Source of the DNA: a virus
Lineage: Duplodnaviria > Heunggongvirae > Uroviricota > Caudoviricetes
Length of the DNA stretch: 14,526 bases
Reading direction: 5' to 3' (one strand)
Virus record (IMG/VR): IMGVR_UViG_2778261256_000010
Span: 1-14,526 of that record
Each line of letters starts with the position of its first letter. Within the stretch, counting starts at the first letter, position 1. The notes under the pieces are model-generated. The model was not told the DNA's origin. It saw only the letters and a program-made list of their open reading frames with translations, and made no database searches. Position numbers and translations under genes: made by a program. This document shows, piece by piece, positions 1 to 14,526 of the stretch.

Positions 1-158
1 TCGAAACGTACTCTCAACAGTTCGCTTAGGCATGGAAGTTTTGCGGCATTCTGGCTACACAATAACAAGGGAAGACTTACTCGTGGCTGCAACCCTACTA
101 GCTCAAAATTTATTCACACATGGTTACGCTTTGGGGAAATTATGAGGGGATCTCTCAG
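1..158 (+). mobile_element. IS10-like (IS4 family) insertion sequence, 3' portion ending at the inside end
   Basis: Frame +2 reads ...RNVLSTVRLGMEVLRHSGYTITREDLLVAATLLAQNLFTHGYALGKL then TGA (143-145), which I recognise as the IS10 transposase C-terminus. The last 24 bp (135-158, ...GGAAATTATGAGGGGATCTCTCAG) are the reverse complement of the IS10 inside end CTGAGAGATCCCCTCATAATTTCC. Recognition is from memory. Confidence 0.8.
2..145 (+). CDS. IS10 transposase, C-terminal 47 codons (rest of gene lies left of the window)
   Basis: Open frame from the window edge to TGA at 143-145; sequence matches my recollection of the IS10 transposase tail. Confidence 0.75.
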   Translation, partial: RNVLSTVRLGMEVLRHSGYTITREDLLVAATLLAQNLFTHGYALGKL

Positions 159-386
159 TACTTTATCTCCCTTTTCTGCAGCTAGATCAATCCACTTCTT
201 GGCCTCAACTACATCCTTATCAAAACCATTGATACCATCAAAATAATTTGTCCCTAACTCACTTTGTGCTGCGGTATCCCCTGCGTTAGCGGCTTCTATC
301 AGCGTTTGTTTATTGTCTGCGTTAACGAATCCAGAGCTAAAAAGCAAAGTTAATGCCAGCAACGATGAAGATTTTATGAATTTCAT
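114..386 (-). pseudogene. Sel1-repeat secreted protein, 3'-truncated by IS10 (native part 159-386; 114-158 is read-through into IS10)
   Basis: Start at the second Met of the 114..431 ORF (MKFIKSSSLLALTLLFSSGFVNA, a signal-peptide-like N-terminus). One Sel1-like repeat (AQSELGTNYFDGINGFDKDVVEAKKWIDLAAEKGD) breaks off mid-repeat exactly at the IS10 end (158/159); the last 14 codons are IS10-derived. Confidence 0.6.
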
Positions 387-618
387 ATTTTTTGTTCTGT
401 TGATATAGGATGAACAGTTTAGACGCGGCAAGCGCCAAGTGTGCGAAAAGGGTACTTAAATTTAGTTTATCTGTCAGCTTTGTTAATATAGTTTATAGAT
501 GGTAAAGTTAACAGAAAACTAATCACAGCTAGAAATAATGACTTATTTAATTATTGTGACGCTGCACAAGATATACTTAAATTATAACAACGATAAATAT
601 AATTAAAGGGAAATCAAA

Positions 619-1032
619 ATGAGCAAAAATAAGCTGATTTTAACAGGAGCTTTATTGTCGTTATTTGCTTTAGTGGGGTGTAAACCCACCGACGAGAAGG
701 CTATTTCTCTGGGTCAACAGGCAATTGCGGATGATATGAAAGACCCCTCGTCTGTAATGTTTAGAAAAGATAAGTTCGTCAGGACTGATCATAATGACGG
801 GAGAGTTACCGGTTTTGTGTGCGGTGAATTAAACGCAAAAAATGGATTTGGTGCATACGTGGGCTACCACTCATATGTTGTCGAACTTGAAATGAAATCA
901 AAGGGCATGTTTTCTAAAGGTGTGGAATACAAAATCCTCATGAAGTCATTGGCACCAAACGAGCCTCATGATTTACAGCGTTATAAGCAGGTCTACAGAG
1001 AGATGTGCAACAGTGAGGCTGTAGCTCATTAA
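619..1032 (+). CDS. small lipoprotein, unknown function
   Basis: 137-aa ORF with RBS AAAGGGA 6 nt upstream; N-terminus MSKNKLILTGALLSLFALVGC has a signal peptide and lipobox (LVGC). Confidence 0.7.
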   Translation: MSKNKLILTGALLSLFALVGCKPTDEKAISLGQQAIADDMKDPSSVMFRKDKFVRTDHNDGRVTGFVCGELNAKNGFGAYVGYHSYVVELEMKSKGMFSKGVEYKILMKSLAPNEPHDLQRYKQVYREMCNSEAVAH

Positions 1033-1095
1033 TGTGAATGCCGGGCTTATCGTCTGCCTGGCTTCTTCGTATAGCAGACTATTGCGCCCGATATA

Positions 1096-1115
1096 ATAAG
1101 TAGATACTTACTTAT
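1096..1115 (+). repeat. 20-bp motif ATAAGTA-NN-TACTTACTTAT, copy 1 (identical arms to the copy at 4689-4708; near-copy at 11336-11355)
   Basis: ataagtagatacttacttat, 42 bp upstream of the 1157 start codon and immediately downstream of a perfect TATAAT (1092-1097). Confidence 0.55.
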
Positions 1116-1156
1116 TTTTCTGAAAGAATACTTTCATCTGTTAGTCAGGAGTTGCT

Positions 1157-1951
1157 ATGAAAGAAGAATTTCAGAAGTTAGTCTGCGACATCATCGACAA
1201 ATCCGGCGTAGAAATTGATACAGAAGAGCGCCAGAAGATTATCGACGAGGCGATCCAAACTGCACTGGAGCATATCGCCACGTCCGTGAGCACCGTACCT
1301 CTTTCGGAAGGCTCGAAATACATGCAGGTCTGGGTTCGTTTTGGAGAGTCCCCGGAGTTGCCAGGTGTTAAGCAGAAACGCGCGGCACTTGTGGCGTTCT
1401 CTCGCGAGATGAAAGACGCAACGGTCGAAGTGAGTACCGGTGCATGGTACGACGGCCGCATTGTCTACACCAATCAGACTGTGTGCGATAAAGGTGAACG
1501 GTTTGAGGATATTGTCGACGCAACTCTTCGCACGCTCAAAGTCAGAGCTGGTGTGGCGGATGATCCGTCCATCGCGGCGTTCCTGAGTATTGTCGAACAG
1601 TCTGAAGTTACCGAGCGCGTAACAGATCTGACAACTCCACCTGGTTTGCTGGAATTGGTGGTCAGTGGCGATATCAAAAAAGCCGTTGAGCGCATTCGTG
1701 AGGTGGAATACGGCATTATCTGCGATATGTGCCGCAGCGACTTAGACCTGGTGCGCATCATTGTCGACGCGGGTCAGGCATGTGACGGAGTACTCGCCAG
1801 TTTTGCAGGGCAAGTGGCTCGTCTGGCCAACGAATTACCCATGATTAAACAAGAAGCCAAATCCTACGCCGTTCATCGTACCAACGATTTACTGGACCCA
1901 TACCGGTTCGAAGCTGCTCAGGACAAAATGACTGGCTGGGCGACCTGGTAA
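1157..1951 (+). CDS. hypothetical protein (264 aa), no recognisable motif
   Basis: Long ORF with strong RBS AGGAG (1147-1151) 5 nt upstream, followed by its own terminator. Antisense ORFs 1171..1461 and 1474..1761 are taken as shadows. Confidence 0.7.
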   Translation: MKEEFQKLVCDIIDKSGVEIDTEERQKIIDEAIQTALEHIATSVSTVPLSEGSKYMQVWVRFGESPELPGVKQKRAALVAFSREMKDATVEVSTGAWYDGRIVYTNQTVCDKGERFEDIVDATLRTLKVRAGVADDPSIAAFLSIVEQSEVTERVTDLTTPPGLLELVVSGDIKKAVERIREVEYGIICDMCRSDLDLVRIIVDAGQACDGVLASFAGQVARLANELPMIKQEAKSYAVHRTNDLLDPYRFEAAQDKMTGWATW

Positions 1952-1969
1952 GCCTCGATAAAACATTTA

Positions 1970-1990
1970 GCCCCCTCGTGGGGCTTCTTT
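1970..1990 (+). terminator. Rho-independent terminator
   Basis: GCCCC-ctcgt-GGGGC stem-loop followed by TTCTTT, 19 bp after the stop of the 264-aa gene. Confidence 0.6.
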
Positions 1991-2032
1991 AAACTGCGAT
2001 TAATAAGTAAGTACAAGATTACGGTTAGAAGC

Positions 2033-2509
2033 ATGTCCACAAGAACAGATTTGTCGAAAATCCCGTCTATCTCCGGAAACAACGGTTATTCGCTGCGCTG
2101 CCCGGAAGTGAAGCTCAACGGCCATGAGGCTCATTGCAGCTATACAGTCTGCCAACACACGATCCTCGCCTATAAAGAAAAACGTCTCCCGGCTACATCG
2201 TTCCAGTCCTGCGCTGCGGCTATTGCTGCTGGTAAATGTCAGGCACTGAAAATGATGGTCGAAGAGATCCGCAAAGACGAACAGCTCTACTTCATCGATA
2301 TGTCTTCACTTATCAAAGAAGTGGAAGAGCAAAACGACCATGCCAGAACGCTCCCCCGGAAGCGAAACACCGCGACAATTGACAGTCTTATTCATCGCAC
2401 GAAGAAAACAGAACCTGCTAAATCCGAAACCAATCCCACCGATTCACTGGCGCCGATCACTGACGTGTACGCGGCACTCATTGAAGAAGCAACCAAAGAA
2501 AACACATGA
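2033..2509 (+). CDS. hypothetical Cys-containing protein (158 aa)
   Basis: ORF directly upstream of and co-oriented with the ligase; five Cys in the N-terminal half (C23, C35, C40, C60, C69) suggest a possible metal-binding module. No family recognised. Weak RBS. Confidence 0.55.
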   Translation: MSTRTDLSKIPSISGNNGYSLRCPEVKLNGHEAHCSYTVCQHTILAYKEKRLPATSFQSCAAAIAAGKCQALKMMVEEIRKDEQLYFIDMSSLIKEVEEQNDHARTLPRKRNTATIDSLIHRTKKTEPAKSETNPTDSLAPITDVYAALIEEATKENT

Positions 2510-2543
2510 AAACTCCCGAGCGACCGATGGAGGTTAAACACTA

Positions 2544-3866
2544 ATGGAAAAACTGATCGCCCTAAAGCACAAGCTGGATGCTATTAAAACGATGGGAACC
2601 AACGCCAAGAAAGAGGCGCTGGCCAATCTGGATGAATTTGAACAGAGCATGGTCTCGCTAATGCTCAATCCATTCATTCGATTCGGTGTGAAGAAGTACA
2701 AAGTGGCCGAGCCACTCGATACTTCCGTACCCAGCGACCAGAAGGTAGTAGATCTGCTGGAGAAGCTGGCAGCGCGCGAACTGACCGGGAACATCGCTAT
2801 TGCTGCTGTCGAATCACTCGTTGCCTCGATGTGCGCTGACGGGCAGGACGTGTTTCGTCGCTTCCTGCTGAAAGATCCGAAAGCCGGTGTCGGCATCAGC
2901 CTGTGCAACAAGGTGTTCGAAAACCCAATTCCGAAGTTTGAGGTACAGCTGGCGTCTCCGTACAAGGAGAAAGGCGACAAATACCCATTTAAACCAAATC
3001 CAAAGGCCAAGTGGCCAATGATCGGCAGTCTCAAACTCGATGGTCTCCGGGTTATCTGCGAAGTCATCGTGGACGAGGGTGAGGTCAATTTCCTGACGCG
3101 CACCGGCAATCCGATTACGTCACTCGATCACCTTAAACCAGCCATGCTGGAGCGGGGCAGACTCTCCGGCTTCAATCACATCTTCTTCGATGGAGAGGGC
3201 ACTGCAGGTACATTCAACCAGTCAGTGTCGGCGCTTCGTAAGAAGAACGTGAAAGCCATTGGTGCCGTTTACCACATTTTCGATTTCTTCTTACCGGAGT
3301 GGCGTGCTCAAGCAAAAAGCAAAGAGTACCTGAAGACCGGTATGAAGCTGAAAGAGCGCCTGGCTATGCTGGTGGCGTTGTTCCGCAACACTTGCGTGGA
3401 AGATTATGCGCAAGATATCCACCTTCATCCGTTCTACATCATCCATAGCCACGAAGATTTCATCGAACGTTTCATGAAGCGACTGGACGAGAATGAAGAG
3501 GGAGAGATGGACAAAGATCCGGATTCAGTTTACGAGTTCAAACGTACCCGCAGCTGGTGGAAGCTGAAAGACGAGGATTCAGAAGACGGTGAAATCATCG
3601 ACTTCGAGCCTGGCGATCCGGATTCTGGATTTGCGCATACGCTAGGCAAGATAGTGATTCGTCTGGAGAACGGCGTCATCGTTCGTGCCAGCGGTATCAA
3701 GCATAAATACCTGGATGAAATCTGGAACAATCAGGAGAAGTATCGTGGACGCATCGTTGAGGTTCACTGCCATGAGAAAACGCCAGATGGTAGCTTGCGT
3801 CATCCACGTCTGAAGTGGCCTAAATGTCTTCGAGATACCGAAGATCGTATTGGAGATAAAGAATGA
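2544..3866 (+). CDS. ATP-dependent DNA ligase, phage T4 gp30-like
   Basis: RBS GGAGG upstream. Nucleotidyltransferase motif I KLDGLR (K164, 3033-3050), FFDGEG, WWKLK, and the C-terminal LRHPRLKWPKCLRD (motif VI-like). The N-terminal domain aligns by eye with T4 ligase (ARELTGNIAIAAVESL...ISLCNKVF...LASPYKEKGDK versus T4 TRKLTGNAAIEELTGY...VSIANKVW...LASSYDEKGINK). Confidence 0.85.
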   Translation: MEKLIALKHKLDAIKTMGTNAKKEALANLDEFEQSMVSLMLNPFIRFGVKKYKVAEPLDTSVPSDQKVVDLLEKLAARELTGNIAIAAVESLVASMCADGQDVFRRFLLKDPKAGVGISLCNKVFENPIPKFEVQLASPYKEKGDKYPFKPNPKAKWPMIGSLKLDGLRVICEVIVDEGEVNFLTRTGNPITSLDHLKPAMLERGRLSGFNHIFFDGEGTAGTFNQSVSALRKKNVKAIGAVYHIFDFFLPEWRAQAKSKEYLKTGMKLKERLAMLVALFRNTCVEDYAQDIHLHPFYIIHSHEDFIERFMKRLDENEEGEMDKDPDSVYEFKRTRSWWKLKDEDSEDGEIIDFEPGDPDSGFAHTLGKIVIRLENGVIVRASGIKHKYLDEIWNNQEKYRGRIVEVHCHEKTPDGSLRHPRLKWPKCLRDTEDRIGDKE

Positions 3867-4042
3867 TGCTCGGCTGGATGTTTGTATTTTTAGTCGTCGG
3901 CATTGTTATCGGAAGTCTGGTTATGTCCAGCTGTATCCACGATTACGTAAAAGCCGGTGTCATGCAAAGGCGAGGTCGTATTTATCGCATAGTAGATATC
4001 ACGGACACACTGAAGGAGATTAAGGATGATCATGTTAAGTAA
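3863..4042 (+). CDS. small membrane protein (59 aa), not in the supplied ORF track
   Basis: ATG at 3863 overlaps the ligase stop (ATGA); RBS GGAGA 7 nt upstream; MMLGWMFVFLVVGIVIGSLVMSS is a predicted TM helix; stop TAA 4040-4042. Translated by hand. Confidence 0.45.
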   Translation: MMLGWMFVFLVVGIVIGSLVMSSCIHDYVKAGVMQRRGRIYRIVDITDTLKEIKDDHVK

Positions 4043-4238
4043 ACGAGAGAAGGAAACCCTGCGTGAAATTAGCAAGTGGAAGGAGTTCTACGCCAACTGG
4101 AAGCCGAAGACCAGAGCCAAACTGGAGCGCATGAATCTTGTCGCCAACGTTTCTCCAAAGGGATGTATTGAGAACTATCAACTGACTGAAAAAGGTTATT
4201 TGTTGTTGCAGCAATTGACTGAGGCGGGGGCGCACTGA
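4026..4238 (+). CDS. small hypothetical protein (70 aa)
   Basis: Strong RBS AAGGAG (4013-4018) 7 nt upstream of ATG 4026; soluble, charged sequence; stop overlaps the next start. Confidence 0.55.
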   Translation: MIMLSKREKETLREISKWKEFYANWKPKTRAKLERMNLVANVSPKGCIENYQLTEKGYLLLQQLTEAGAH

Positions 4239-4390
4239 TGATTCCATACATCATTTTATCTTTTACTGGTGGCGTGGGCCTCGGCCTCGCAATCTGCCGC
4301 GCCCTGGTCCAGCAGGAACTGCAAACCAAAACACTTCGTGTCGGTAAGCGTGTGTATCGGGTTGTTCACGAGACGGGAGTGCGAAAATGA
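4238..4390 (+). CDS. small membrane protein (50 aa), not in the supplied ORF track
   Basis: ATG 4238 overlaps the upstream stop (TGATG); MIPYIILSFTGGVGLGLAICRAL is a TM helix; stop TGA 4388-4390 overlaps the ATG of the next gene (4387). Confidence 0.4.
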   Translation: MIPYIILSFTGGVGLGLAICRALVQQELQTKTLRVGKRVYRVVHETGVRK

Positions 4391-4692
4391 GCAATTTGAC
4401 TTCCTTCGACTGGTGGCTGGCAACCTACCTTGTGGCGGCCGGCTTCGGATTTGCCTTTTACATTGGTCAGTTAATCGTAAAGCTACTGCTGATCAGATTC
4501 GCCAGCCATAAACGCATAGACGACGGTCTGTGGCGTCTGGGGTCCCTGTTAGAGACGCATTACGGCGAACTCAAGGAAAACGAAACTATCACTATTCAAG
4601 CGAAGCGTTTTACCGCCATCATCACGAGAACTCCGGAACAAAAGGGGAGCCTGATCAAAAAGATAGCAACTAAACGCATCACAGATAGATAA
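4387..4692 (+). CDS. small membrane protein (101 aa)
   Basis: N-terminal TM segment WWLATYLVAAGFGFAFYIGQLIV followed by a charged C-terminal domain; translationally coupled to the preceding small gene. Confidence 0.6.
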   Translation: MSNLTSFDWWLATYLVAAGFGFAFYIGQLIVKLLLIRFASHKRIDDGLWRLGSLLETHYGELKENETITIQAKRFTAIITRTPEQKGSLIKKIATKRITDR

Positions 4693-4708
4693 GTATTTAC
4701 TTACTTAT
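4689..4708 (+). repeat. 20-bp motif ATAAGTA-NN-TACTTACTTAT, copy 2
   Basis: ataagtatttacttacttat, overlapping the stop codon of the 101-aa gene; followed by CTAATAT...TATAAGAT, which is shared with copy 3. Confidence 0.55.
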
Positions 4709-4884
4709 CTAATATGTATAAGATCACTTTGTTTTCGTTGAGATGCGACTGTTTGAACGTTAAATATAACTGCAAACGAAGATGCATACCTGGCAGTAGC
4801 CTAAGAAGCCAAACACCAGCGAGGTCAGTTTCCAGCCTCGTCACCAAAATGGGACACACTGAGCGAGTGTGATTGCAGAACGCA

Positions 4885-4916
4885 GAATAGGGCATATTGC
4901 ACCATCCATGCCCTAT
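4885..4916. other. perfect 10-bp-stem hairpin (AATAGGGCAT / ATGCCCTATT, 12-nt loop)
   Basis: Direct reading; no U-tract after it, so not a classical terminator. Confidence 0.5.
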
Positions 4917-5071
4917 TCAATGAAGTAACAGAATGGGCGGTTGGTTTCATCATTCCATTCACCCATCCCGGTTTCAGCTGACCGTCCATTCTGTTACGTC
5001 ATTTCCATTACTTATGTCGTTTATACTTGGGTTAAAAGCGGCGACGTAACCCGGCTGACTTGGTTAGTCAG

Positions 5072-5189
5072 CACATAACGTTGAGATCACTGATTTTTCT
5101 TAAAATCATACAGGCGATTCCACATAGCTGTAGCGACTGATCAATATGTTGGGTTGAACATTAATCGGTTCAGTGATCTCAACGTTGTG
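5072..5189. repeat. 17-bp perfect inverted repeat (5076-5092 / 5169-5185; 20 of 21 if extended) flanking a 76-bp spacer
   Basis: AACGTTGAGATCACTGA and its exact reverse complement TCAGTGATCTCAACGTT; three GATC sites within the element. Confidence 0.55.
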
Positions 5190-5435
5190 AAAGCAGGATT
5201 AATTAACCCTCTAGTGAAAACATTGTTGCCTTTATTGCCCCTGACTTCACAACATGTATGATTCCATACATCCAATAAGATCGAAGAATCTAACGGCAAT
5301 CAACCACCGAGAAAGATTCCAGATCTTCGCTCATATGAGCGAGCCACATACCTCGTCTGGCACTAACGTAAAGTGCAAGTTGCGGGAAAGTTTCTGGCTG
5401 CCTGGTTGTCCATAAGCTAGTACCGCCGCGAAAAT

Positions 5436-5510
5436 GATGGTGTAGCTCAGTGGTAGAGCGGTTGACTGTTAATCAACTGGTCGGTGGTTCGAGTCCACCC
5501 ACCATCGCCA
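5436..5510 (+). tRNA. tRNA-Asn (anticodon GTT at 5468-5470)
   Basis: Folded by hand into a full cloverleaf: 7-bp acceptor stem GATGGTG/CACCATC, D-arm GCTC-AGTGGTA-GAGC, anticodon stem GTTGA/TCAAC with loop CTGTTAA, T-arm GGTGG-TTCGAGT-CCACC, discriminator G, encoded CCA. Confidence 0.9.
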
Positions 5511-5663
5511 ACATAGCGCTGAACGGTTTGGATTCGCCACCACCGTCCGAACGAAAGACTCCGCAAATGTCGCCAGACCGTTCAGCGCTGTGATAGACAC
5601 GGCAGACGTTTTTTAACCATTGCTTCTAAGCATCGTAGCAACACTTTTTTCAGCGCAAAATCC

Positions 5664-5685
5664 AAAGGGGCTTCGGCCCCTTTTT
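5664..5685 (+). terminator. Rho-independent terminator downstream of the tRNA
   Basis: AAAGGGGC-TTCG-GCCCCTTTTT: GC-rich stem, tetraloop, T-run. Confidence 0.7.
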
Positions 5686-5764
5686 GCTATCAAGTCGCAT
5701 ATGCAACCAACTTTTTTTAGCTTATAGTTAAGTTCAGTAGTAGAATGCTACGCTTCGTCGAGAA

Positions 5765-6313
5765 ATGACGATTATGGAGTCTATCGTGAAATTTAAAATC
5801 CAGCATTTGCAGGCAGCAGTGGCACTGGTTCTTGCCAGTATCCAGCCGCAACCCAAAGCGGTTGCGTGTCAGCCTACGATTGTAGAACGGGTTTATGAGA
5901 TGGGCGCTAGAGTCAACAAAACCGACATCAGTGATCTTACAGCTGCTCTCAATGAATTGGCTAAAGAACTGCGTTCAAGCCGCGCTGAACTTGCTCATTA
6001 TGCTGACACTGACTTCTTTGCTGCTATCAAAGTAGCGGAAGAAATTAAGAATCAAACTATTCATGTAGCCGGTATCGCAGAATCTTTTGTTTTGATGTTA
6101 CCTGAAAAAGACGTCATCATGTCTTACGACAAAAACACTGTTGAGTTTGCGTTTTTTAAGGCTATTAAAATGGTCAGTATTGCGACCAAAAACTATCTCA
6201 ATCTGATTGATCAGATTACACGCACTTCTGTAGTGCGTGACTCTGGTGTCAACCTTTTAGCCATGAACCATCTATTAGAGACTGGCAACAAGGCTGCGGC
6301 TAAATGGCATTAA
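5765..6313 (+). CDS. putative antitoxin-like partner of the YafO-family toxin (182 aa; true start uncertain)
   Basis: ORF ends 10 nt inside the toxin gene (6304-6313 overlap), the usual toxin-antitoxin coupling. No recognisable Phd/YefM or RHH sequence signature; much larger than E. coli YafN (~97 aa). Confidence 0.45.
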   Translation: MTIMESIVKFKIQHLQAAVALVLASIQPQPKAVACQPTIVERVYEMGARVNKTDISDLTAALNELAKELRSSRAELAHYADTDFFAAIKVAEEIKNQTIHVAGIAESFVLMLPEKDVIMSYDKNTVEFAFFKAIKMVSIATKNYLNLIDQITRTSVVRDSGVNLLAMNHLLETGNKAAAKWH

Positions 6314-6720
6314 CGGCTGAATACAGTCAAGTTACGTGGGATGATTTTTTTCAGCCCACTTTTGTCGTTTACCCTGACCTAGAAAGTCAGCTCAAATCCG
6401 AGTTCATTACTTACAAATCAACTGGCGCACCATCTAATCTTCTTGGACGAGATGCGCCATTTGACTTCCCGCCGTTCGCCGTTGATGCTAATGTCCAGCA
6501 TATTCACGTCAATTTGCATTTCCAGCTTACCTGGAACGCAAGGCAAGAGAACTACAACCGAACCTCAAACCACTATCTCGTTTATACCGAGCACATGTGG
6601 GATAGCGGGCGTTTTTTGCTGATGGGGCTAGTCACTCCAGCTCACGATCGTATGCCAGCAAGAGATACTAGGTTGCTCAGCTACTTCGCTGAAGTCGCAG
6701 AAGGTTTCCATTCTAGCTGA
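6304..6720 (+). CDS. yafO: YafO-family type II toxin (ribosome-dependent mRNA interferase family)
   Basis: Aligned by eye to my recollection of E. coli YafO: FITYKSTGAPSNLLGRDAPFD vs FISYKRDGVLPDIFGRDALYD; VQHIHV vs VAHIHL; RTSNHYLVY vs RTNDEAHLVY; FLLMGLVTPAHDRMPARD vs WLLIAILKPEPHKLARD. Confidence 0.7.
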   Translation: MALTAEYSQVTWDDFFQPTFVVYPDLESQLKSEFITYKSTGAPSNLLGRDAPFDFPPFAVDANVQHIHVNLHFQLTWNARQENYNRTSNHYLVYTEHMWDSGRFLLMGLVTPAHDRMPARDTRLLSYFAEVAEGFHSS

Positions 6721-6887
6721 ACTTTAGCGATCGTCATCTTCTTCATCATTCTTTTTCTTCTAACAAATCATTCTCATCAATCTGGCTCAGATGGCATTCC
6801 AAAGTTGGCGTTATTAGGCGCTTTTTACTATTTAGCGTTTAAGATGGTTTGTCTACATAATTTATTCAGAATTTACGTAAGCTATAT

Positions 6888-6922
6888 AAATGATTCCATA
6901 CTTGTAAGGTATGGAATCATTT
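6888..6922. promoter_or_regulatory. perfect 14-bp inverted repeat AAATGATTCCATAC-N7-GTATGGAATCATTT (candidate operator)
   Basis: Exact palindrome about 100 bp upstream of the recombinase ORF; shares the core TGATTCCATAC with the 15-bp direct repeats at 4238 and 5258. Confidence 0.5.
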
Positions 6923-6973
6923 TCAAAAACAGTCTATTTTACTGTTGATCATACAAAAACTGAGGCCTAACAC

Positions 6974-6992
6974 ACTGTTTATAAATACAGTA
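6974..6992. promoter_or_regulatory. LexA (SOS) box-like site, CTGT-N8-ACAG
   Basis: ACTGTTTATAAATACAGTA against the gammaproteobacterial consensus TACTGTATATATATACAGTA; AT-rich spacer; about 30 bp upstream of ATG 7021. It is the only CTGT-N8-ACAG I found in the window. Confidence 0.5.
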
Positions 6993-7020
6993 AAAACAGG
7001 CTTCACTCAGTGAGTGGACT

Positions 7021-8124
7021 ATGAAAAACACTTTTGATAAAGCACGCGCAGCAGAAAACACCTCTAGAGAAGCCATCGAGTATCTCGAACGCGCTTCCGG
7101 TTTGTCAGCAGTGTCGACCACCAATTTCGACGGTGACATGTCGTTTTCTTCCGCATTCATGTTATTCACTCGCTTATCTTTGCTGATAACGAGACGTCGA
7201 CCTGAAATAGCTGTTCATTGTATTTTGATACATGTAATGCCGCATATCTGTGAAGTAAAAGTAAGTGACATTAGTAGGGTTTTAGTCAACCAGCTGGTGA
7301 ACCCATTAATACTTGAGGGCAAGATCGTCCAGGGCAGACGTGTGTTCTCGCTGATGAAGCAGTTTCTCAGTTGGTGTGCATTTCAGGGCTTAATTGATAC
7401 ATCCCCATTGAACGATATGTCGCTTAACAGAGTAGCCGGTGGCGCGAAGCCCACGCCGCGCGAGCGCAAACTGACCGACGCAGAGGTCTGGGTCTTTTGG
7501 AATGTATGGGACTACTTCAACGTATGTGAGGGTACAAAGTGGGCGGCCAGATTATGCCTTGTAGCGGCCAGACGACCAGATGAAGTGCTCCGAGCTAAAA
7601 GATCAGAATTCAACCTCGAATATAATTTATGGAATCAAGGAACGAGGAATAAATCGGCTCGCCAGCACTCGTTACCATTAAGCCCGCTAATGCGCAAATG
7701 TGTTGAGGAGCTGATCAAATACGGAAAAGGCAGCCAGTGGCTTGTTCCTTCAAACAAGAAACAGGGTGAGGATGTGCCAATGTCTAAGGTGGCCATATCA
7801 CAGGCGTTGAGAAGGATTTTAGAACGTCCAGAGTTGATGGAGCTTGAGCCATTTACCCCCCGAGATTTGCGTCGTACTGCGCGTAGTTACTTCCCCGCGT
7901 TAGGCATAAGTCAGGAGGTATCCCGCAAAATTATGAACCACAGTCTTGAGGGGATAGATCGAGTATACGATCGACACGATTATATAGACGAGATGCGAGA
8001 CGCCTTAAACAGTTTTTCGGCGTACATCGCATCAATCGTAGAGAAACAGGATTTAGAGGAGATAGATCATAAGTTCAAGGGAGATCGACTCGCTACTGAG
8101 CTAATCCGTGTAAATTTCTCATAG
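7021..8124 (+). CDS. tyrosine recombinase/integrase, P4-like catalytic core; arm-binding N-terminal domain absent, first ~60 aa unrelated
   Basis: Core-binding-like segment from about aa 70 (HVMPHICEVKVSDISRVL...VFSLMKQFLSWCAFQGLIDTSPLNDMS); catalytic signatures ARRPDEVL (box I Arg), FTPRDLRRTA (box II, with R where His is usual), NHS, and RVYDRHDY (catalytic Tyr). Confidence 0.65.
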   Translation: MKNTFDKARAAENTSREAIEYLERASGLSAVSTTNFDGDMSFSSAFMLFTRLSLLITRRRPEIAVHCILIHVMPHICEVKVSDISRVLVNQLVNPLILEGKIVQGRRVFSLMKQFLSWCAFQGLIDTSPLNDMSLNRVAGGAKPTPRERKLTDAEVWVFWNVWDYFNVCEGTKWAARLCLVAARRPDEVLRAKRSEFNLEYNLWNQGTRNKSARQHSLPLSPLMRKCVEELIKYGKGSQWLVPSNKKQGEDVPMSKVAISQALRRILERPELMELEPFTPRDLRRTARSYFPALGISQEVSRKIMNHSLEGIDRVYDRHDYIDEMRDALNSFSAYIASIVEKQDLEEIDHKFKGDRLATELIRVNFS

Positions 8125-8517
8125 CGACTTGATTGCCTCAACAACCCGCTCCGACGCACCACGTTGGTCACCGAAACGTCGACGGAAGGCTTCCAGAACT
8201 AGTTTTTCATCTTTAGTCAGAGGGGCTGTGCCTTCGTCGCGAAAAAACGCTAACAGCTCTGGATGACGCTCTTCCAGCACCATTAGCATCAATCGGACCG
8301 AATCGGCATCCAATGCTTTAGCCAACGCTCTGACCTTGTCGATCGGAAGCGGGATTTTGCCGCTCTTGATAAGTGAAAGATTGTTAGGGTTTTTATAGCC
8401 TGCTTCTTTCGCGATGGTCGCCTGGCTTTTCGGAGAAATCGCGATTAAAGCGTCAATGTAAGCAGCGTAGCGACCTACTTTAGCTTCTGTTGTTTCGTTG
8501 GTAGCCATAATTATCAA
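8119..8517 (-). CDS. helix-turn-helix (XRE/Cro-like) transcriptional regulator
   Basis: SQATIAKEAGYKNPNNLSLIKSGKIPLPIDKVRALAKAL is a canonical HTH; convergent with and overlapping the recombinase 3' end by 6 bp. Start may be the second ATG (MATNE...). Confidence 0.65.
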   Translation of the reverse strand: MIIMATNETTEAKVGRYAAYIDALIAISPKSQATIAKEAGYKNPNNLSLIKSGKIPLPIDKVRALAKALDADSVRLMLMVLEERHPELLAFFRDEGTAPLTKDEKLVLEAFRRRFGDQRGASERVVEAIKSL

Positions 8518-8764
8518 CCTGCGTGTTTTGATTTTATTTGGTAAGTGCTTACTGATATTACATCAAAGGTTAGTGTTGTAAAGACTTATCTATTTTTTTA
8601 CGTAGGTTTACTGACCGCAAAAGGCTTCATTAATAGACAACTATCTAAAAAATAACTCATTTAAGAACTTAAAACTAAGTTGTATTTGATATATAAGTAT
8701 TCCGTATTGATACAATAGGTAGTAGTATTGCAAGGCATTTACGTGTTCAGTTGGATGATATGAA

Positions 8765-8977
8765 ATGAAAAAAATAACTTCTAATTTGATCGCCCTTGAG
8801 GTCGGACATACGGTTTCAATTGACGATGATGGGGCAGCAGCCATACTCACTGAACTGCCAACAAAGTCTTTGTTACTTGACATGAAAGACGCAACCGCAT
8901 ACATCTTTGAGCTAAAGGGCAAGTGCTTCACTCTCATCAATACCGGCTGCGGTTCAGTAGCCGTCCGCACAAGTTAA
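8765..8977 (+). CDS. small hypothetical protein (70 aa)
   Basis: RBS-like GGATGA upstream; sits just upstream of the vWA gene; could be spurious (AT-rich surroundings). Confidence 0.35.
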   Translation: MKKITSNLIALEVGHTVSIDDDGAAAILTELPTKSLLLDMKDATAYIFELKGKCFTLINTGCGSVAVRTS

Positions 8978-9002
8978 CACCACCCCTCCCATCCTCTCTA
9001 GC

Positions 9003-9037
9003 GCCTGTACGAACAGATTAGATGCCTGTTCGTACAG
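9003..9037. promoter_or_regulatory. tandem near-palindromic sites GCCTGTACGAACAG / GCCTGTTCGTACAG (candidate operator pair)
   Basis: CTGTACGAACAG (9005-9016) and its exact reverse complement CTGTTCGTACAG (9026-9037), 9-bp spacer, about 55 bp upstream of the preferred start of the vWA gene. Confidence 0.45.
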
Positions 9038-9090
9038 TGATAAATTACGCACATCAGAAAACAAATTGTTTTAACAACAAGGGAATTCTA

Positions 9091-11319
9091 ATGTCCAAAA
9101 AAACCACCAAAGCTGTACTGAAAGAGGTGCAGGATTTTCGCGACTGTGTAAAACGAGTTGTAGCGATGCTTTCAGGTAAACAGATACCTGTTGCAGAACG
9201 AGGCAATGAAGCATATGTCCGCTATAACCGGCGCGGCGAACCAGTGCTGGTAAACATCCCATCTATACCGGACGACGCGTCGCCAACCCTCATGAACGCA
9301 GTGCGTGGTTTTCTCGACCATGAGGTGGCCCATATTCTCTTTACTGAACCGAAAGTCGCAATGCAGATGCGCGAAAGAGGAAAGGCTCCGTCTACGGGGC
9401 TTTGGAATGCGCTGGAAGACGTTTTTATTGAACGCAGAATGGGGCAGGTCTTTAACGGAACCCGGCGTAATTTACTTGCAACACAGAGTCTGGTTATCGA
9501 CAAATACTTCAGGAATAAAGTACCAGAAGCGGTTTTAGCCTGTCACGGAGACCAGCGTGAATTGTTTTTGAAATTCTTCCTTTGCCCGGTCGTCCGCGCC
9601 TGGGATGGACAAAGCCCCTTCATCGATTTTATGGAAGAACACTGGCGCCTTATCGAGAGGCCGGTAGCCTTACTAAAGGAGCATGGTATAGACGTGGCCG
9701 TTCGCAATATGTCGAACACTGAGGATTGCGTGAAGGTCGCTGCTGCTATAGCCCAAATCATGCAGGATATGAAAGACAAGCCAGAGGGCAAATTACCAGA
9801 ACTTAAATCATCTGCCAGAAAGCCGTCGGAGAGCAAAGACGAGTCCGAGGAAACGCCAGAATCAGGTGACGAGCCGTCTCATGGTGACTCTGCATCTAAG
9901 CCTGCCAAAGGCGAAGGCGATGACAAGGAAGAACGAGAAGATGATGCATCAGAAGAGGAAGATTCTGGGGATTCCGATTTGCCTGATTCGTTAGATAAGG
10001 ACTTACCTACACACGTTAAAGATATTAGTGATACAGAAAGTAAATATACAGAAGCAGGCCACGAAGAGTCAGGAGACACCCCAGAATCCGATGCTATCGG
10101 CATGAAATCAAGTGACTCTGACACCGATGGTGATGGCGGTGAGGACTCCGATACTGATCGTGGGGAAACTGAAGAAGACGTCGAAGGCAAAAAAAATAAA
10201 GATGGTGCGGAAGTGCCCAAAGACAGTGAGTCTGGCTTTGTTCCTGCGCCGGATGAAATGACTCTGGAGGAGGCGCTAAAGGCGCTCGACGAGATGGAAG
10301 ACGGAATCGGTGAAATGACCGAAGACGCACTGTCGGCCACCATCAGCAAAGAGCTTATGAGCGTCTCACCTTCTGATTATCGGCCATACGATCGATCATA
10401 CGACTTTATCGGGTTGATTGATGGAGCCGAAGAGCATGTGAAGCGCACCAGAAAGACGTTCGGTGCAATACCAATGCACTCACCAGTCGACCGCTACCGT
10501 ATGGTGCCAGAAGGCAGAAAACTCTTTGAACTGAAAATCGAAAAACATCTGTCTGCAGGCGTTTCTTCGACGCTGGCCAAAGACCTGGAGCGGGCCATCG
10601 CCAGCCGCAACCGAGTTCAGTTTATACCTGGTCAGAGGCGTGGGCGGATACATGGCGCGAGCCTGTATCGTCTGGCAATGAACGACGACCGAGTGTTCCG
10701 CAAGAAGGAAGACCATAGAGCGGTGAACGCGTGTGTCCAGCAAGTCATCGACTTGTCCGGCTCAATGGATGGCGTGAAGATTCAACTGGCCCTAGCCAGT
10801 GCCTATACCATTGCGGATGCTTTAGATCGTATCAATGTCCCCAACATCATCACCGGCTTTACCACGTTCGGTAGCCCAGATTATGAAACCAGGTCGAAGC
10901 GCGGGTTTACACGCTTCGAGGCGCTCATGCTGCCCATTATCAAAAACTGGAATGAGAAAGCAAACTCTCCAGAGATCCGTGCTCGCATGGGATGCGTATG
11001 TGAGACGTTCCCCCTGCTCAATAACGTCGATGGTGAGAGTGTCGCGCAACTGGCTACCCTGTTTGCAGGGCGAATGGAGGACAAAAAGATCATGCTGGTT
11101 ATGAGTGATGGGGAGCCATGTGCTACAGGTAGTGGATTCCATCAGCATTTACGAACCGTCACCAAAGAAATTGAGACCTTGAGCGACATCGAACTGATGG
11201 CTATCGGCATTCTGACCGACGAACCACGGCGTTACTACAAAAATTACGCACTGGTTAACAGTGTTGAAGAGTTAGGGCCGTCAGTCGTCACTGAGTTATC
11301 TCGTATCATTCTTGGGTAA
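9091..11319 (+). CDS. CobT/BchD-like architecture: N-terminal HExxH (zincin-like) module, ~170-180 aa acidic Ser/Asp/Glu-rich linker, C-terminal von Willebrand factor A domain
   Basis: Preferred start ATG 9091 (RBS AAGGGA 6 nt upstream); the track ATG 9022 lies inside the palindrome and lacks an RBS. HEVAH at 9319-9333 with Glu in NALEDVFIERR about 25 aa downstream (gluzincin-like spacing). vWA MIDAS DLSGS (10750-10764), then GFTT and MSDGEP. Confidence 0.75.
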   Translation: MSKKTTKAVLKEVQDFRDCVKRVVAMLSGKQIPVAERGNEAYVRYNRRGEPVLVNIPSIPDDASPTLMNAVRGFLDHEVAHILFTEPKVAMQMRERGKAPSTGLWNALEDVFIERRMGQVFNGTRRNLLATQSLVIDKYFRNKVPEAVLACHGDQRELFLKFFLCPVVRAWDGQSPFIDFMEEHWRLIERPVALLKEHGIDVAVRNMSNTEDCVKVAAAIAQIMQDMKDKPEGKLPELKSSARKPSESKDESEETPESGDEPSHGDSASKPAKGEGDDKEEREDDASEEEDSGDSDLPDSLDKDLPTHVKDISDTESKYTEAGHEESGDTPESDAIGMKSSDSDTDGDGGEDSDTDRGETEEDVEGKKNKDGAEVPKDSESGFVPAPDEMTLEEALKALDEMEDGIGEMTEDALSATISKELMSVSPSDYRPYDRSYDFIGLIDGAEEHVKRTRKTFGAIPMHSPVDRYRMVPEGRKLFELKIEKHLSAGVSSTLAKDLERAIASRNRVQFIPGQRRGRIHGASLYRLAMNDDRVFRKKEDHRAVNACVQQVIDLSGSMDGVKIQLALASAYTIADALDRINVPNIITGFTTFGSPDYETRSKRGFTRFEALMLPIIKNWNEKANSPEIRARMGCVCETFPLLNNVDGESVAQLATLFAGRMEDKKIMLVMSDGEPCATGSGFHQHLRTVTKEIETLSDIELMAIGILTDEPRRYYKNYALVNSVEELGPSVVTELSRIILG

Positions 11320-11335
11320 TAGCTTACCCTTAAAA

Positions 11336-11355
11336 ATAAGTAACTACTTACTATA
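11336..11355 (+). repeat. 20-bp motif, copy 3 (ATAAGTA-AC-TACTTACTATA)
   Basis: 17 bp after the vWA gene stop and about 60 bp upstream of the zinc-finger gene; followed by CTAATAT...TATAAGAT as at copy 2. Confidence 0.5.
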
Positions 11356-11413
11356 CAGCCTAATATATTTCTATAAGATATACCCCACAAACGACAAACA
11401 GTAAGGAAAAAAC

Positions 11414-11680
11414 ATGACCGCTACTGCACTACAGCAAGAAGAACATTTGCCGGAAGCCATCGTCTGCAAGTGGTGTGGCAAATCCTTTCATTACCTGAAA
11501 TCCCATATCTCTATGGGCCGTTGCGAGAATATTCCTGAGTCTGCGAAGGGTCTGGACGTGGACGAAGTGGTGAAGATGTACACCTCTGCGTTTCCAGATG
11601 AACCAACGATCTCTCGCACGGCACTGGCCAAACTCAATGAGAAGGGGTCGTTTGCGGGAGGGGGCGGAATCCTACGCTAA
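11414..11680 (+). pseudogene. Ros/MucR-type zinc-finger mini-protein, 3' end replaced by the Tn3-family inverted repeat (native part 11414-11643)
   Basis: RBS AAGGA 6 nt upstream. IVCKWCGKSFHYLKSHI matches the Ros/MucR zinc-finger IVCLECGGSFKSLKRHL, and SRTALAKLNEKG matches ARSRLAKEMGLG. From codon 78 the ORF is encoded by the transposon IR (GSFAGGGGILR). Confidence 0.5.
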
Positions 11681-11681
11681 G
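11644..11681. repeat. Tn3-family 38-bp terminal inverted repeat (GGGG...ACGCTAAG)
   Basis: GGGGTCGTTTGCGGGAGGGGGCGGAATCCTACGCTAAG; outer GGGG at 11644; the tnpA stop (CTA on +, 11677-11679) lies inside the IR, as is typical of the family. Confidence 0.8.
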
Positions 11682-14449
11682 GCTTTGGCCAGCGATATTC
11701 TCCGGTGAGATTGATGTGTTCCCATCCGAGCGGCGAAACATGGGCCAAGAGATCGGGCGATAGCAGCTTTCCATCGCGTTTCTGGTTTGCAACGACCTCG
11801 CCGAGCTTCATGGTGTTCCAGAAGATGATGATGGCGGCGAGCAGATTCATGCCGGCGATGCGGTAATGCTGGCCTTCGGCGGAACGGTCGCGGATTTCAC
11901 CGCGGCGGTGGAAGCTGATTGCCCGCTTCAGCGCATGATGAGCTTCGCCTTTGTTGAGCCCGATCTGGGCACGCCGTTGGAGTTCGGCATCCAGAATCCA
12001 GTCGATCATGAACAGGGTGCGCTCGACGCGACCGACTTCCCGCAGGGCTGTCGCGAGCTCGTTCTGCCGCGGATAGGAGGCGAGTTTCCGCAGAATCTGG
12101 CTTGGCGCGACGGTCCCGGCAGCAATGGTGGCGGCGATGCGCAGGATGTCGGGCCAATTGCGCTCGATCATGGCTTGGTTGACCTTTCCGCCGATCAACG
12201 CTCGCAGGTGCGCCGGGGCGGCCGACGGATTGAACGCGTAGAGCCGTTTGGATGGCAGGTCGCGGATGCGCGGAGCGAACCGGTAGCCGAGAATGGCACA
12301 TGCGGCAAAGACGTGATCGGTGAAGCCGCCCGTGTCGGTGAACTGCTCGCGGATATGGCGTCCAGCATCGTTCATCAGCAGGCCATCGAGGATGTAAGGC
12401 GCTTCGCTTGCCGTTGCAGGAATCACCTGGGTTGCGAACGGCGCATATTGGTCGGAGACGTGGCTATAGGCTTTCAGGCCCGGGGTATTGCCATATTTCG
12501 CGTTGACCAGGTTCATGGCCTCACCTTGCTCTGTAGCGACGAAGAACTGTCCGTCGCTCGAAGCCGACGTGCCCATGCCCCAGAACCGGGCCATGGGTAA
12601 CGCTGCCTGTGCCTCGACCACCATGGCCAGCGCCCGGTCATAGGCTTCGCCCTCGACATGCCACCGTCCAATGCGGATCAATTCCCAGAAGGTGTGGGTG
12701 TTTGTCGCATCCGCCATTTTGCGCAAGCCGAGGTTGATCCCTTCCGCCAAGATAACGTTCATTAGCCCGATCCGGTCAGCGCAGGGTGCTCCTGTGCGCA
12801 GATGGGTGAACGCTTCGGTGAAGCCGGTCGCCGCATCCACCTCCAGCAGGAGATCGGTGATGCGCGTGGGCGGGATCTGCTTGTAGAGATCGAGCACCAG
12901 ATCTTCGGCGCCTGTCGGCGCGGCGGCTTCGAGTTTCTCGATATGCAGAACGCCGTTTTCAATCGACCCGCCCGGGATCGTGCCTGCGCGAGCGGCACGG
13001 CCAAGCTCGCGCAACCGCATGTCGAGGCGAGCTTGCCGGTCTGCCAGCCATTCCTCCGGCCGCAATGGCACAGCGAGACGACCGCCTTCCGCGATGGATT
13101 GTGCCGGAACGAGTGCGTGTTTCAGATCGCCATAGCGCCGGGACCTAGTAAGCCAGACATCTCCGGAGCGGAACGCATCGCGCAGATGGAACAGCACCGC
13201 GATCTCCCATAGGCGAGCGTCGCCAGCCCTCTGGGCCCGAAGGTGGCGATGCCATTTCGAGCTGGGCCGCAAGAAGCTGGTCATCGCGGCATCGTTCAAA
13301 CCGGTACGAAGGGCCGTCACCGCTTCCAGAAGCGGCAGTGCAACGGGCGCAGCTCGCAGATCGAGCAGGCGCAACATGCGTGGAGCGTATCGGCGGAAGC
13401 GGTGATAACCGTCGAGCACATGATTGAGCGGATCGTCGGCCATGGTGGCGGTCAGCCTGGTTGCCATTGCAACAAGGGTTTTTAAGCCGTCCCACCCTGA
13501 CCCACTCGCGATGACATCGCCCAGCGGCTGGCCATCATCCTGTGCATCGACCAGGGCGCCCCCGATCTCGGCGAAGGATTTCAGGGTGTCACGCACCACC
13601 CCCGCTTCGTCTGCGACCTTTGCATGGCAAATACGCTCCGAAGCACGGTAGAGACGGCCGACGATCCGGTCGTGGGTTTCGACCACTGCGTCGGCCAACA
13701 TCGCCTGCCATTCCGAGACGCAAACAGCCAAGATCGCAAGCCGCCTGTCCTCCGGGAGATCGCGCATGCCGTCGGCATAATACCGTTCACCCTGCCTGCG
13801 CAGACGAGTCACCCGATGGGCAGGAACGCCGGCAAGCAGATCCTCGGGGAGATCGATGCGTTGCAGATATTCGAGCCGGTCGAGCAGCCGGTTGGCCGAC
13901 GAAGAGTTCGAGCCAGGCTCGAACTGGCGCAGCCACACAAAACGGGTCACCCGATCATCAGCCGTCTCCTCGAGCAATGCCAGCAACTGTTCTCGGATCG
14001 ACATAGGCAGCCGACTGGCGATCCTCGTCTCGATGCGTCGCTCGGCATCGACGAGAGCCGCGGCACAAAGCCGCTCGATCGTGGATGTCGCGGGAAGGAC
14101 AGTGCGGGTGCGTCGGCACTCGGCTACGAAGCGACGGGCGATATCCTCGTTCGACACCGCCATCTCGGCTTCTCGGAACAACCATTCCTTCAGCTCGCTC
14201 GCACCACGTCCGGAGAAGGTGCGGAAGCCGTAGAGCCCCCGTAACTCGGCAAGATGCTCGTGCCGTGTTTCCTCGCGGGCAGCATAGTCTACGAGATCGT
14301 CGGCACCCAGGCCAAGCTGCGCTCCGATAAATTCGATGACCTCTGCAGGGATCAGTTCGCCTGGAGCCAGCACCCGGCCGGGATAGCGCAGGACACACAA
14401 TTGCAGGGCGAAGCCGAACCTGTTGTGAGCGCGCCGACGCAGCCTGATA
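11644..14449 (-). mobile_element. Tn3-family transposon remnant (one IR plus 5'-truncated tnpA; no res, tnpR or cargo in view)
   Basis: High-GC block bounded by the 38-bp IR on the left and the IS10 outside end on the right. Confidence 0.8.
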
Positions 14450-14505
14450 CTGATGAATCCCCTAATGATTTTTATCAAAATCATTAAGTTAAGGTAGATA
14501 CACAT
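11677..14505 (-). CDS. tnpA: Tn3-family transposase TnpA, 5'-truncated (first ~18 codons of the ORF are IS10-derived; native part 11677-14449)
   Basis: 942-aa ORF; C-terminus ...LSPLGWEHINLTGEYRW is the Tn3-family signature; N-proximal SIRLRRRAHNRFGFALQLCVLRYPG matches Tn21 TnpA near residue 37-60 (recalled), so about 35 N-terminal residues are missing. Opposite-strand ORFs in this block are GC-rich shadows. Confidence 0.9.
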   Translation of the reverse strand: MCIYLNLMILIKIIRGFISIRLRRRAHNRFGFALQLCVLRYPGRVLAPGELIPAEVIEFIGAQLGLGADDLVDYAAREETRHEHLAELRGLYGFRTFSGRGASELKEWLFREAEMAVSNEDIARRFVAECRRTRTVLPATSTIERLCAAALVDAERRIETRIASRLPMSIREQLLALLEETADDRVTRFVWLRQFEPGSNSSSANRLLDRLEYLQRIDLPEDLLAGVPAHRVTRLRRQGERYYADGMRDLPEDRRLAILAVCVSEWQAMLADAVVETHDRIVGRLYRASERICHAKVADEAGVVRDTLKSFAEIGGALVDAQDDGQPLGDVIASGSGWDGLKTLVAMATRLTATMADDPLNHVLDGYHRFRRYAPRMLRLLDLRAAPVALPLLEAVTALRTGLNDAAMTSFLRPSSKWHRHLRAQRAGDARLWEIAVLFHLRDAFRSGDVWLTRSRRYGDLKHALVPAQSIAEGGRLAVPLRPEEWLADRQARLDMRLRELGRAARAGTIPGGSIENGVLHIEKLEAAAPTGAEDLVLDLYKQIPPTRITDLLLEVDAATGFTEAFTHLRTGAPCADRIGLMNVILAEGINLGLRKMADATNTHTFWELIRIGRWHVEGEAYDRALAMVVEAQAALPMARFWGMGTSASSDGQFFVATEQGEAMNLVNAKYGNTPGLKAYSHVSDQYAPFATQVIPATASEAPYILDGLLMNDAGRHIREQFTDTGGFTDHVFAACAILGYRFAPRIRDLPSKRLYAFNPSAAPAHLRALIGGKVNQAMIERNWPDILRIAATIAAGTVAPSQILRKLASYPRQNELATALREVGRVERTLFMIDWILDAELQRRAQIGLNKGEAHHALKRAISFHRRGEIRDRSAEGQHYRIAGMNLLAAIIIFWNTMKLGEVVANQKRDGKLLSPDLLAHVSPLGWEHINLTGEYRWPKP

Positions 14506-14526
14506 CTTGTCATATGATCAAATGGT
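14450..14526 (+). mobile_element. IS10-like outside end (5' portion of a second IS10 copy, continuing past the window)
   Basis: CTGATGAATCCCCTAATGATTTTTATCAAAATCATTAAGTTAAGGTAGATACACATCTTGTCATATGATCAAATGGT matches my recollection of the IS10 outside end and pIN/pOUT region with a few substitutions. Confidence 0.8.

Follow-up and report, generated by a model that had tools for sequence, protein, structure and literature searches.

Phage-plasmids of the SSU5 type are already known to carry resistance genes, which are sometimes moved by infection (Pfeifer et al. 2022, PMC9600943). Within the Tn5393 group of streptomycin-resistance transposons (Tn3 family), Tn5393h and the related Tn5393l of R64 are forms of Tn5393a with Tn10 inserted in the transposase gene tnpA, an interruption that, in the case of Tn5393h, "likely annihilates its mobility" (PMC10333595). 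Here we describe a locus at which a transposon of this kind lies in an SSU5-type backbone. The window, that is, the whole stretch of 14,526 nucleotides analyzed here, is IMG/VR virus record IMGVR_UViG_2778261256_000010 and corresponds to a complete draft short-read contig from Escherichia coli (NNVY01000075.1, assembly GCA_002485945.1), reported for two samples and hereafter called the source contig. Very probably, a Tn5393h-type transposon that carried an inherited Tn10 in its tnpA inserted by transposition into codon 77 of a gene encoding a CobS-like AAA+ ATPase. Both junctions, the identities of all the parts and the sharing of the tnpA-IS10 junction across different sites were observed directly. 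The known resistance phage-plasmids (PMC9600943) resemble this element in having transposon-borne determinants in a transposase-rich region of an SSU5-like backbone; they differ in that their integron or other transposon regions occupy other loci, whereas here Tn5393/Tn10 lies in the cobS-like gene.

The insertion point is sharply defined. In the alignment, the window and its uninterrupted relatives do not differ up to and including position 11643/11644, after which all similarity is lost. On the backbone side the junction reads ...AATGAGAA, followed by GGGGTCG; the terminal inverted repeat (IR) of the transposon, GGGGTCGTTTGCGGGAGGGGGCGGAATCCTACGCTAAG..., starts at 11644, and its first G completes codon 77 (AAG, 11642-11644). 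The boundary thus falls at the first base of the repeat, which is the signature of Tn3-family transposition. In the plasmids pEC21Z137-115K and pYY76-1-1, the equivalent of the start codon at 11414 opens a coding sequence of 1,236 bp annotated as "AAA family ATPase," which encodes a product of 411 amino acids and sits between a cobT-like gene and dnaE. The preliminary description of this DNA had located the open reading frame (ORF, 11414), the start of the repeat (11644), tnpA and the IS10 boundary (14450) exactly, and it had rightly recognized a Tn3-family element inside a gene: intact homologues extend far past 11644, so the reading frame does not end naturally before the repeat. It had nevertheless taken the interrupted frame for a small gene with only a Ros/MucR-like zinc-finger domain, whereas the frame in fact comprises the first 77 codons of the 411-amino-acid ATPase gene.

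Downstream of the junction, the frame reads 11 foreign codons (GSFAGGGGILR) and terminates at 11678-11680, giving a chimeric ORF of 88 codons. Its stop overlaps the stop codon of tnpA (11677-11679, minus strand) inside the 81-bp repeat. Given this placement of the stop within the repeat, any gene entered in this frame would close after reading 11 codons of the IR. When the chimeric ORF was looked up by exact protein match, a single NCBI contig was returned, NNVY01000075.1. The corresponding protein record, WP_244578712.1, is a junction artefact of an interrupted gene rather than a genuine protein family, and the ATPase, truncated to this chimeric peptide, is almost certainly inactive.

What was lost can be read from the intact homologue, which carries the Pfam domain AAA_5 (E=2.8e-15) and which, over residues 142-411, is matched by cobaltochelatase CobS chains of solved structure in the PDB (E=1.5e-25). 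We call the product CobS-like, and not CobS, because its score against the NCBIfam CobS equivalog TIGR01650 (85.5 bits) is far under the cutoff of 558.55. Like cobaltochelatase CobS/CobT, the intact homologue combines a CobS-related AAA+ domain with an adjoining CobT/VWA partner, an upstream gene with CobT and CobT_C domains; the copy in the window is devoid of the ATPase part. Unlike cobaltochelatase, the phage-plasmid protein has an additional N-terminal extension of ~140 residues, its gene sits among phage replication genes, and no CobN was seen within the window. Of 271 matching plasmids, which come from Escherichia, Salmonella, Enterobacter, Citrobacter, Yersinia pestis and others, 269 have the gene's 3' kilobase at nearly full length, a distribution that marks the cobS-like gene as a conserved core gene of the SSU5-type plasmid group.

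The inserted element was identified just as closely. From 11644 to 14526, the window shows 0/2883 mismatches to the complete Tn5393-type element of the Salmonella Kentucky plasmid pCS0010A, our reference for the Tn5393h layout (pCVM29188_146 type), and it is 100% identical to many other plasmids as well, so the features of the insertion are not due to chance. The resemblance of the repeat to the end of Tn5393, which had been suggested earlier, is thereby borne out. A 38-bp repeat abutting codon 77 had also been proposed; its position stands and its length does not, the repeat being 81 bp and the 38 bp corresponding to the Tn3-family core. The terminal repeat of Tn5393 has been termed the "81-bp TIRstr" (PMC6052338). 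The core of the Tn1721-type repeat likewise ends in ACGCTAAG, and a relic adjoining strB, which covers precisely bases 1-81 of the element, is found in thousands of plasmids; in pCS0010A, the repeats on the tnpA side and the strB side align over 94 nt at 89%. The tnpA product is a clear Tn3-family transposase (Pfam DDE_Tnp_Tn3, E=1.2e-143, and DUF4158, E=4.2e-42; NCBIfam transpos_Tn3, 1000.1 bits against a cutoff of 500), of which 923 residues are retained in the window out of the 961 of the intact protein as reconstructed from pCS0010A. As the preliminary description stated, the transposon is much richer in GC (0.58-0.645, with tnpA at 62-64%) than the backbone preceding it (0.44-0.54).

IS10 does interrupt tnpA, its outside end lying at 14450 and its 77 visible bases being identical to a Tn10 arm. 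In pCS0010A, the order is IR, tnpA fragment, IS10, gltS...tetR(B)-tet(B)-tetC-tetD, IS10, tnpA codons 1-38, tnpR, IS1133, strA, strB and IR. That element and the window agree fully in the IR, in the sequence of tnpA, in the point at which the outside end of IS10 lies and in the 9-bp target copy AGCCTGATA; the differences are the site, here codon 77 of a phage-plasmid ATPase gene, and the extent, only the stretch from IR to IS10 being visible. The belief that the transposon retains only its repeat and tnpA is not supported, given that the contig stops inside IS10 and that records with the identical block contain tnpR, IS1133, strA, strB and the right-hand repeat (IRR) beyond Tn10. Judged by these identities, the element is Tn5393 in the known Tn10-interrupted Tn5393h form. 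The coordinates of all features are collected in the following table.

Table. Features of the 14,526-nucleotide window, in order of position.
Feature	Position	Strand	Remarks
IS10, last 158 bases (inside end, ...GGGGATCTCTCAG)	1-158	+	tetD-side Tn10 arm type; 0/158 mismatches to pCS0010A IS10-b vs 6/158 to IS10-a
sel1-repeat (TPR-like) gene, 5' part	159-386	-	cut by left IS10; annotated 'sel1 repeat family protein' in best-matching plasmids
tRNA-Asn (GTT)	5436-5510		ordinary for the plasmid group
YafO-family toxin gene	6304-6720		present in related plasmids; ordinary for the group
Tyrosine integrase gene	7021-8124		present in related plasmids; ordinary for the group
CobT-like VWA protein gene, 765 aa	9022-11319	+	Pfam CobT_C E=1.4e-108, CobT E=1.9e-35; directly upstream of interrupted gene
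CobS-like AAA+ ATPase gene, codons 1-77 of 411	11414-11644	+	no difference from the intact pEC21Z137-115K and pYY76-1-1 genes before the junction
Chimeric 88-aa ORF, 77 native codons and 11 from the IR	11414-11680	+	WP_244578712.1, 'hypothetical protein [Escherichia coli]'
GAGAA, predicted copy of 5-bp target duplication	11639-11643		predicted from position of IR terminus; second copy outside window
Terminal inverted repeat of Tn5393, tnpA-proximal, 81 bp	11644-11724		Tn3-family core, which ends in ACGCTAAG, makes up the first 38 bp
Tn5393 tnpA, codons 39-961 and stop	11677-14449	-	stop inside IR; first 38 codons missing
AGCCTGATA, single copy of 9-bp Tn10 target duplication	14441-14449		flanks Tn10 on both sides in pCS0010A
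IS10, first 77 bases (outside end, CTGATGAATCCCC...)	14450-14526	+	gltS-side Tn10 arm type; 0/77 mismatches to pCS0010A IS10-a vs 4/77 to IS10-b

The preliminary description had ordered the events as a transposon entering the gene and IS10 subsequently entering tnpA at this locus. A query spanning the tnpA-IS10 junction, including the 9-bp copy AGCCTGATA, found it in 39 plasmid records of PLSDB (454 records with a coverage of at least 80% include copies with an uninterrupted tnpA, so that 39 is the junction-specific count); it was not found in the representative genomes scanned. We sampled the sequence outside the IR in 6 of the 39 records, which represent different backbones. Five distinct flanks were obtained: ...GTCCAACC (pCS0010A and pIncFIB L-I1, which share one site), ...CCATAGC (pLAP2_020035, in which ATAGC borders the element on either side as a clean 5-bp duplication), ...CCAGCAT (pLAO8), ...CCATCAG (IncR plasmid CP099300.1) and ...ATCATGTT (pYY76-1-1). 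The source contig (...ATGAGAA) adds a sixth, and every boundary falls exactly at the IR terminus. Since one junction and one 9-bp copy recur at six Tn5393 sites, a single ancestral insertion of Tn10 is the simplest account. The junction is thus most simply read, from this comparison of records, as an inherited marker of the Tn5393h lineage and not as a local hit, and the order of transposon first and IS10 second at this locus is unsupported. Independent hits of IS10 at the same base are also unlikely because AGCCTGATA fits poorly the hotspot consensus of IS10, which we take to be NGCTNAGCN.

One of the sampled records is itself an SSU5-type plasmid. In pYY76-1-1 (NZ_CP040928.1), the block of IR, tnpA fragment and IS10 occupies 82675-85557, and the cobS-like gene is intact at 21802-23037. 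With the block at another site in that plasmid, Tn5393h-type elements have therefore entered the SSU5-type plasmid family at least twice.

These observations suggest the following course of events. Tn10 would have entered tnpA after codon 38 once, in an ancestor of the Tn5393h lineage, and would have been inherited in the source contig. Tn3-family transposition is replicative, with a cointegrate that is resolved by TnpR, and it generates a 5-bp duplication of the target; such duplications were seen elsewhere as ATAGC in pLAP2_020035 and as GGGTT around a Tn1721-type element in pJH51-3. By its own transposition chemistry, the Tn5393-type transposon would have inserted into codon 77, and the predicted second junction would read IRR-GAGAA-GCGTGCC..., that is, ...CCCGCAAACGACCCC-GAGAA-GCGTGCCGAAAA..., leading into the rest of the ATPase gene. 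The remainder of the transposon (tnpA', tnpR, IS1133, strA-strB and IRR) and the 3' 334 codons of the gene presumably lie on other contigs. Two routes can be envisaged for an element with a broken transposase gene. In the first, the defective element may have been moved to the site by a Tn5393 transposase supplied in trans; in the second, an intact Tn5393 may have inserted first, its interior being replaced later by homologous recombination with a Tn10-bearing copy. The recombination route would keep the physical order of events that the preliminary description assumed at the site, but not its mechanism of an IS10 hit. By either route, the ATPase would have been inactivated, leaving the chimeric peptide, in a manner tolerated for plasmid maintenance.

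Several points weigh against this explanation. The event rests on one contig: the junction between backbone and IR was absent from PLSDB plasmids, complete E. coli genomes, IMG/VR, GTDB representative genomes and JGI metagenomes, so that the source contig is the only record to contain it. The second end of the insertion lies outside the window, and a 5-bp duplication and simple transposition are consequently unproven for the site at 11644; the predicted right junction (IRR, 4-7 nt and CGTGCCGAAAA) was not found in IMG/VR or in the metagenomes. Finally, IS10 has preferred targets, which makes an independent second hit at the same base unlikely but not impossible, and the order of events at 11644 cannot be proven.

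Among the other explanations, the one that survives best, with a slim chance of being correct, is that the Tn5393 fragment arrived within a larger block through IS10/Tn10 or recombination, the 14.3-kb segment between the two directly oriented IS10 copies being the product of a Tn10 inside-end intramolecular inversion. Inside-end inversion is a classical Tn10-promoted rearrangement, and the topology of the arms is the one expected from it: a different Tn10 arm stands at each end of the contig, the two arms share one orientation (outside end first on the plus strand, inside end last), and next to the inside end of the tetD-side arm lies the sel1-repeat gene of the backbone and not tetD. Such an inversion would account for the junction between the left IS10 and sel1, but not for the junction between backbone and IR at 11644, with its Tn3-family signature, and for the left end an ordinary extra hop of an active IS10 into sel1 is just as good an explanation. 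Two explanations therefore fit the left end, namely an extra IS10 hop into sel1 or an inside-end inversion that would have discarded tet(B). The 9 bp after the left IS10 (TACTTTATC) would be the target duplication in the event of a simple IS10 insertion.

Less probable still is the scenario closest to the preliminary description, in which a small, stand-alone Ros/MucR gene was hit by a Tn3-family transposon and IS10 then jumped locally into tnpA. The length and the CobS-like AAA+ domain of the intact gene contradict its first step, as do the scores of the zinc-finger region: Pfam ROS_MUCR (PF05443) reaches 13.3 bits (E=0.086) over residues 13-33 only, under the gathering cutoff of 25.4, and precomputed PF05443 annotations occur in 0/18 homologues of the N-terminal module. 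The second step is at odds with a junction and a 9-bp copy that 39 plasmids share unchanged across six or more Tn5393 sites, repeated hits on so poor a match to the hotspot consensus being improbable. We consider it least likely of all that the junction between backbone and IR is an assembly artefact, a phage-plasmid contig misjoined to a Tn5393 end from elsewhere in the genome; the source is indeed a draft short-read contig with repeats at both ends, Tn5393 ends and IS10 are multi-copy and the junction is in no other record, but the join coincides precisely with base 1 of the IR, a position that real transposition demands, the backbone and the IR share only one G and thus offer no repeat for an assembler crossover, and the sequence on either side of the join is unique within a contig reported for two samples. 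For the insertion by transposition of an already Tn10-interrupted element, then, the insertion site is the sole feature specific to the source contig; all the components are already known and the event is an ordinary one.

The zinc-finger likeness that motivated the Ros/MucR assignment deserves separate consideration. The 77 residues encoded in the window contain IVCKWCGKSFHYLKSHISMGRC, a zinc-knuckle module formed by Cys18, Cys21, His31 and Cys37, and these four residues are invariant in all true homologues of the N-terminal module. The likeness to Ros is real over ~22-30 residues, and alignments end after 22-31 residues. A profile of the N-terminal region placed Ros (2JSP) at the top of all PDB sequences at E=0.048, with the zinc fingers of XPA and ClpX close behind, and a profile-profile comparison with a genuine MucR/Ros alignment gave 91.5% probability over 22 columns only (residues 13-34 against Ros 74-95), both profiles being of low diversity. 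Whether sequence profiles, folds or pairs of profiles are compared, Ros is the best match, yet a weak one; the fold search used a model of the 77 window-encoded residues, a 183-residue model being mostly of low confidence (pLDDT 49). A generic C2H2 model scores slightly above ROS_MUCR on the module, and a 165-residue N-terminal piece gave no ROS_MUCR match at all.

Compared with Ros/MucR (2JSP), the phage module shares the motif IVC-x2-CG-x-SF-x2-LK-x-H with its Cys-x2-Cys-x9-His spacing, C18, C21 and H31 aligning to C79, C82 and H92 of Ros. It differs in its candidate fourth ligand, which is C37, a Cys at +6 and not a His at +3/+4/+5, in the lack of counterparts to the C-terminal half of the domain (PEEYRxKWxLPxDYPMVAPxY) and to the N-terminal oligomerisation region, and in its context, Ros/MucR proteins being small stand-alone regulators (~140 aa) whereas the phage module is the N-terminus of a 411-residue AAA+ ATPase. 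The module thus has a Cys-x2-Cys-x9-His knuckle of the Ros type in common with that family, and membership in the Ros/MucR family is not established. Where the preliminary description saw a mostly alphaproteobacterial family against gamma-like DNA, the setting is that of an E. coli SSU5-type phage-plasmid, and homologues of the module are confined to such elements.

The evidence for a diverged Ros-type finger is concordant but weak, and we regard it as doubtful, though conceivable, that the N-terminal ~70 residues represent a true, highly diverged relative of Ros/MucR with Cys2-His-Cys ligands, fused to an AAA+ motor. If so, the Ros-type DNA-binding fold would occur beyond its usual stand-alone alphaproteobacterial regulators, the phage CobS/CobT-like pair might be DNA-targeted and not concerned with porphyrin chemistry, and the Tn5393 insertion, together with a deletion in Logan contig ERR4289423_33 described below, would have left natural stand-alone copies of a Ros-like finger.

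The remainder of the window provides the setting for the insertion. Positions 159-11643 form a single colinear piece of SSU5-type phage-plasmid backbone, with 99.3-99.5% identity to several E. coli plasmids over 88-93% of its length and 91.1% identity to Salmonella phage SSU5 over 61% of 1-11643. The order of genes is that of the relatives, namely DNA ligase, tRNA-Asn, YafO toxin, integrase, cobT-like, cobS-like and dnaE, the last being seen in the relatives. This colinear similarity places the backbone within the SSU5-type phage-plasmids. Both ends of the contig lie inside IS10 and are short-read assembly breaks in a repeat. The left-end IS10 fragment, which the preliminary description did not mention, matches annotated IS10 at 99.3%, and the truncated product of the adjacent sel1-repeat gene has an N-terminus that resembles a signal peptide.

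The interruption at codon 77 is not the only lesion in this gene. In p1585m1_B (NZ_CP086388.1), IS26 breaks the cobS-like gene at about nt 160; in pJH51-3 (CP095457.1), the break, near nt 712, is due to a Tn1721-type IR pair with the duplication GGGTT and a resistance region of 40 kb; in one homologue, IS1 breaks the gene (tail GDAANLLI); and in Logan contig ERR4289423_33, a deletion of 1.1 kb extends from nt 226 to about 100 bp past the stop codon, just upstream of dnaE. These cases concern the same gene and the same plasmid family, with breakage by mobile elements in pJH51-3 and p1585m1_B, the former again by a Tn3-family element with a 5-bp duplication; they differ from the window in the element (Tn1721-type IRs or IS26) and in the point of breakage (near nt 712 or nt 160, as opposed to nt 230). 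Counting Tn5393, IS26, the Tn1721-type element, IS1 and the deletion, the cobS-like gene has been broken independently at least five times, and its breakage in several related plasmids implies that its loss is tolerated in plasmid maintenance.

In ERR4289423_33, what remains of the gene is a zinc-finger module of 75 residues, which ends in a short foreign tail and immediately precedes dnaE, and the cobT-like gene is also fragmented. The endpoint of the deletion lies 4 nt from the Tn5393 insertion (nt 226 against nt 230), and a shared hotspot or a transposon-adjacent deletion was considered and rejected, as no transposon remains and the join resembles one made at short homology; the proximity of the two sites is probably a coincidence. 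Several assemblies in the WP_244578712.1 cluster, some of them contigs of ~105 kb, have short, frameshifted N-termini that break at about codons 65-91 near an A-rich run, which may reflect either true pseudogenes or sequencing errors in homopolymers.

Taken as a marker, the tnpA-IS10 junction is useful for tracing Tn5393h-type elements, which have reached several sites despite their broken transposase gene. The locus also adds one more resistance transposon, probably with strA-strB and perhaps with tet(B), to those carried by SSU5-type phage-plasmids. For this plasmid family, the cobS-like gene looks dispensable for plasmid maintenance and appears to be a recurrent site for cargo, which makes it a convenient place in which to look for such insertions.

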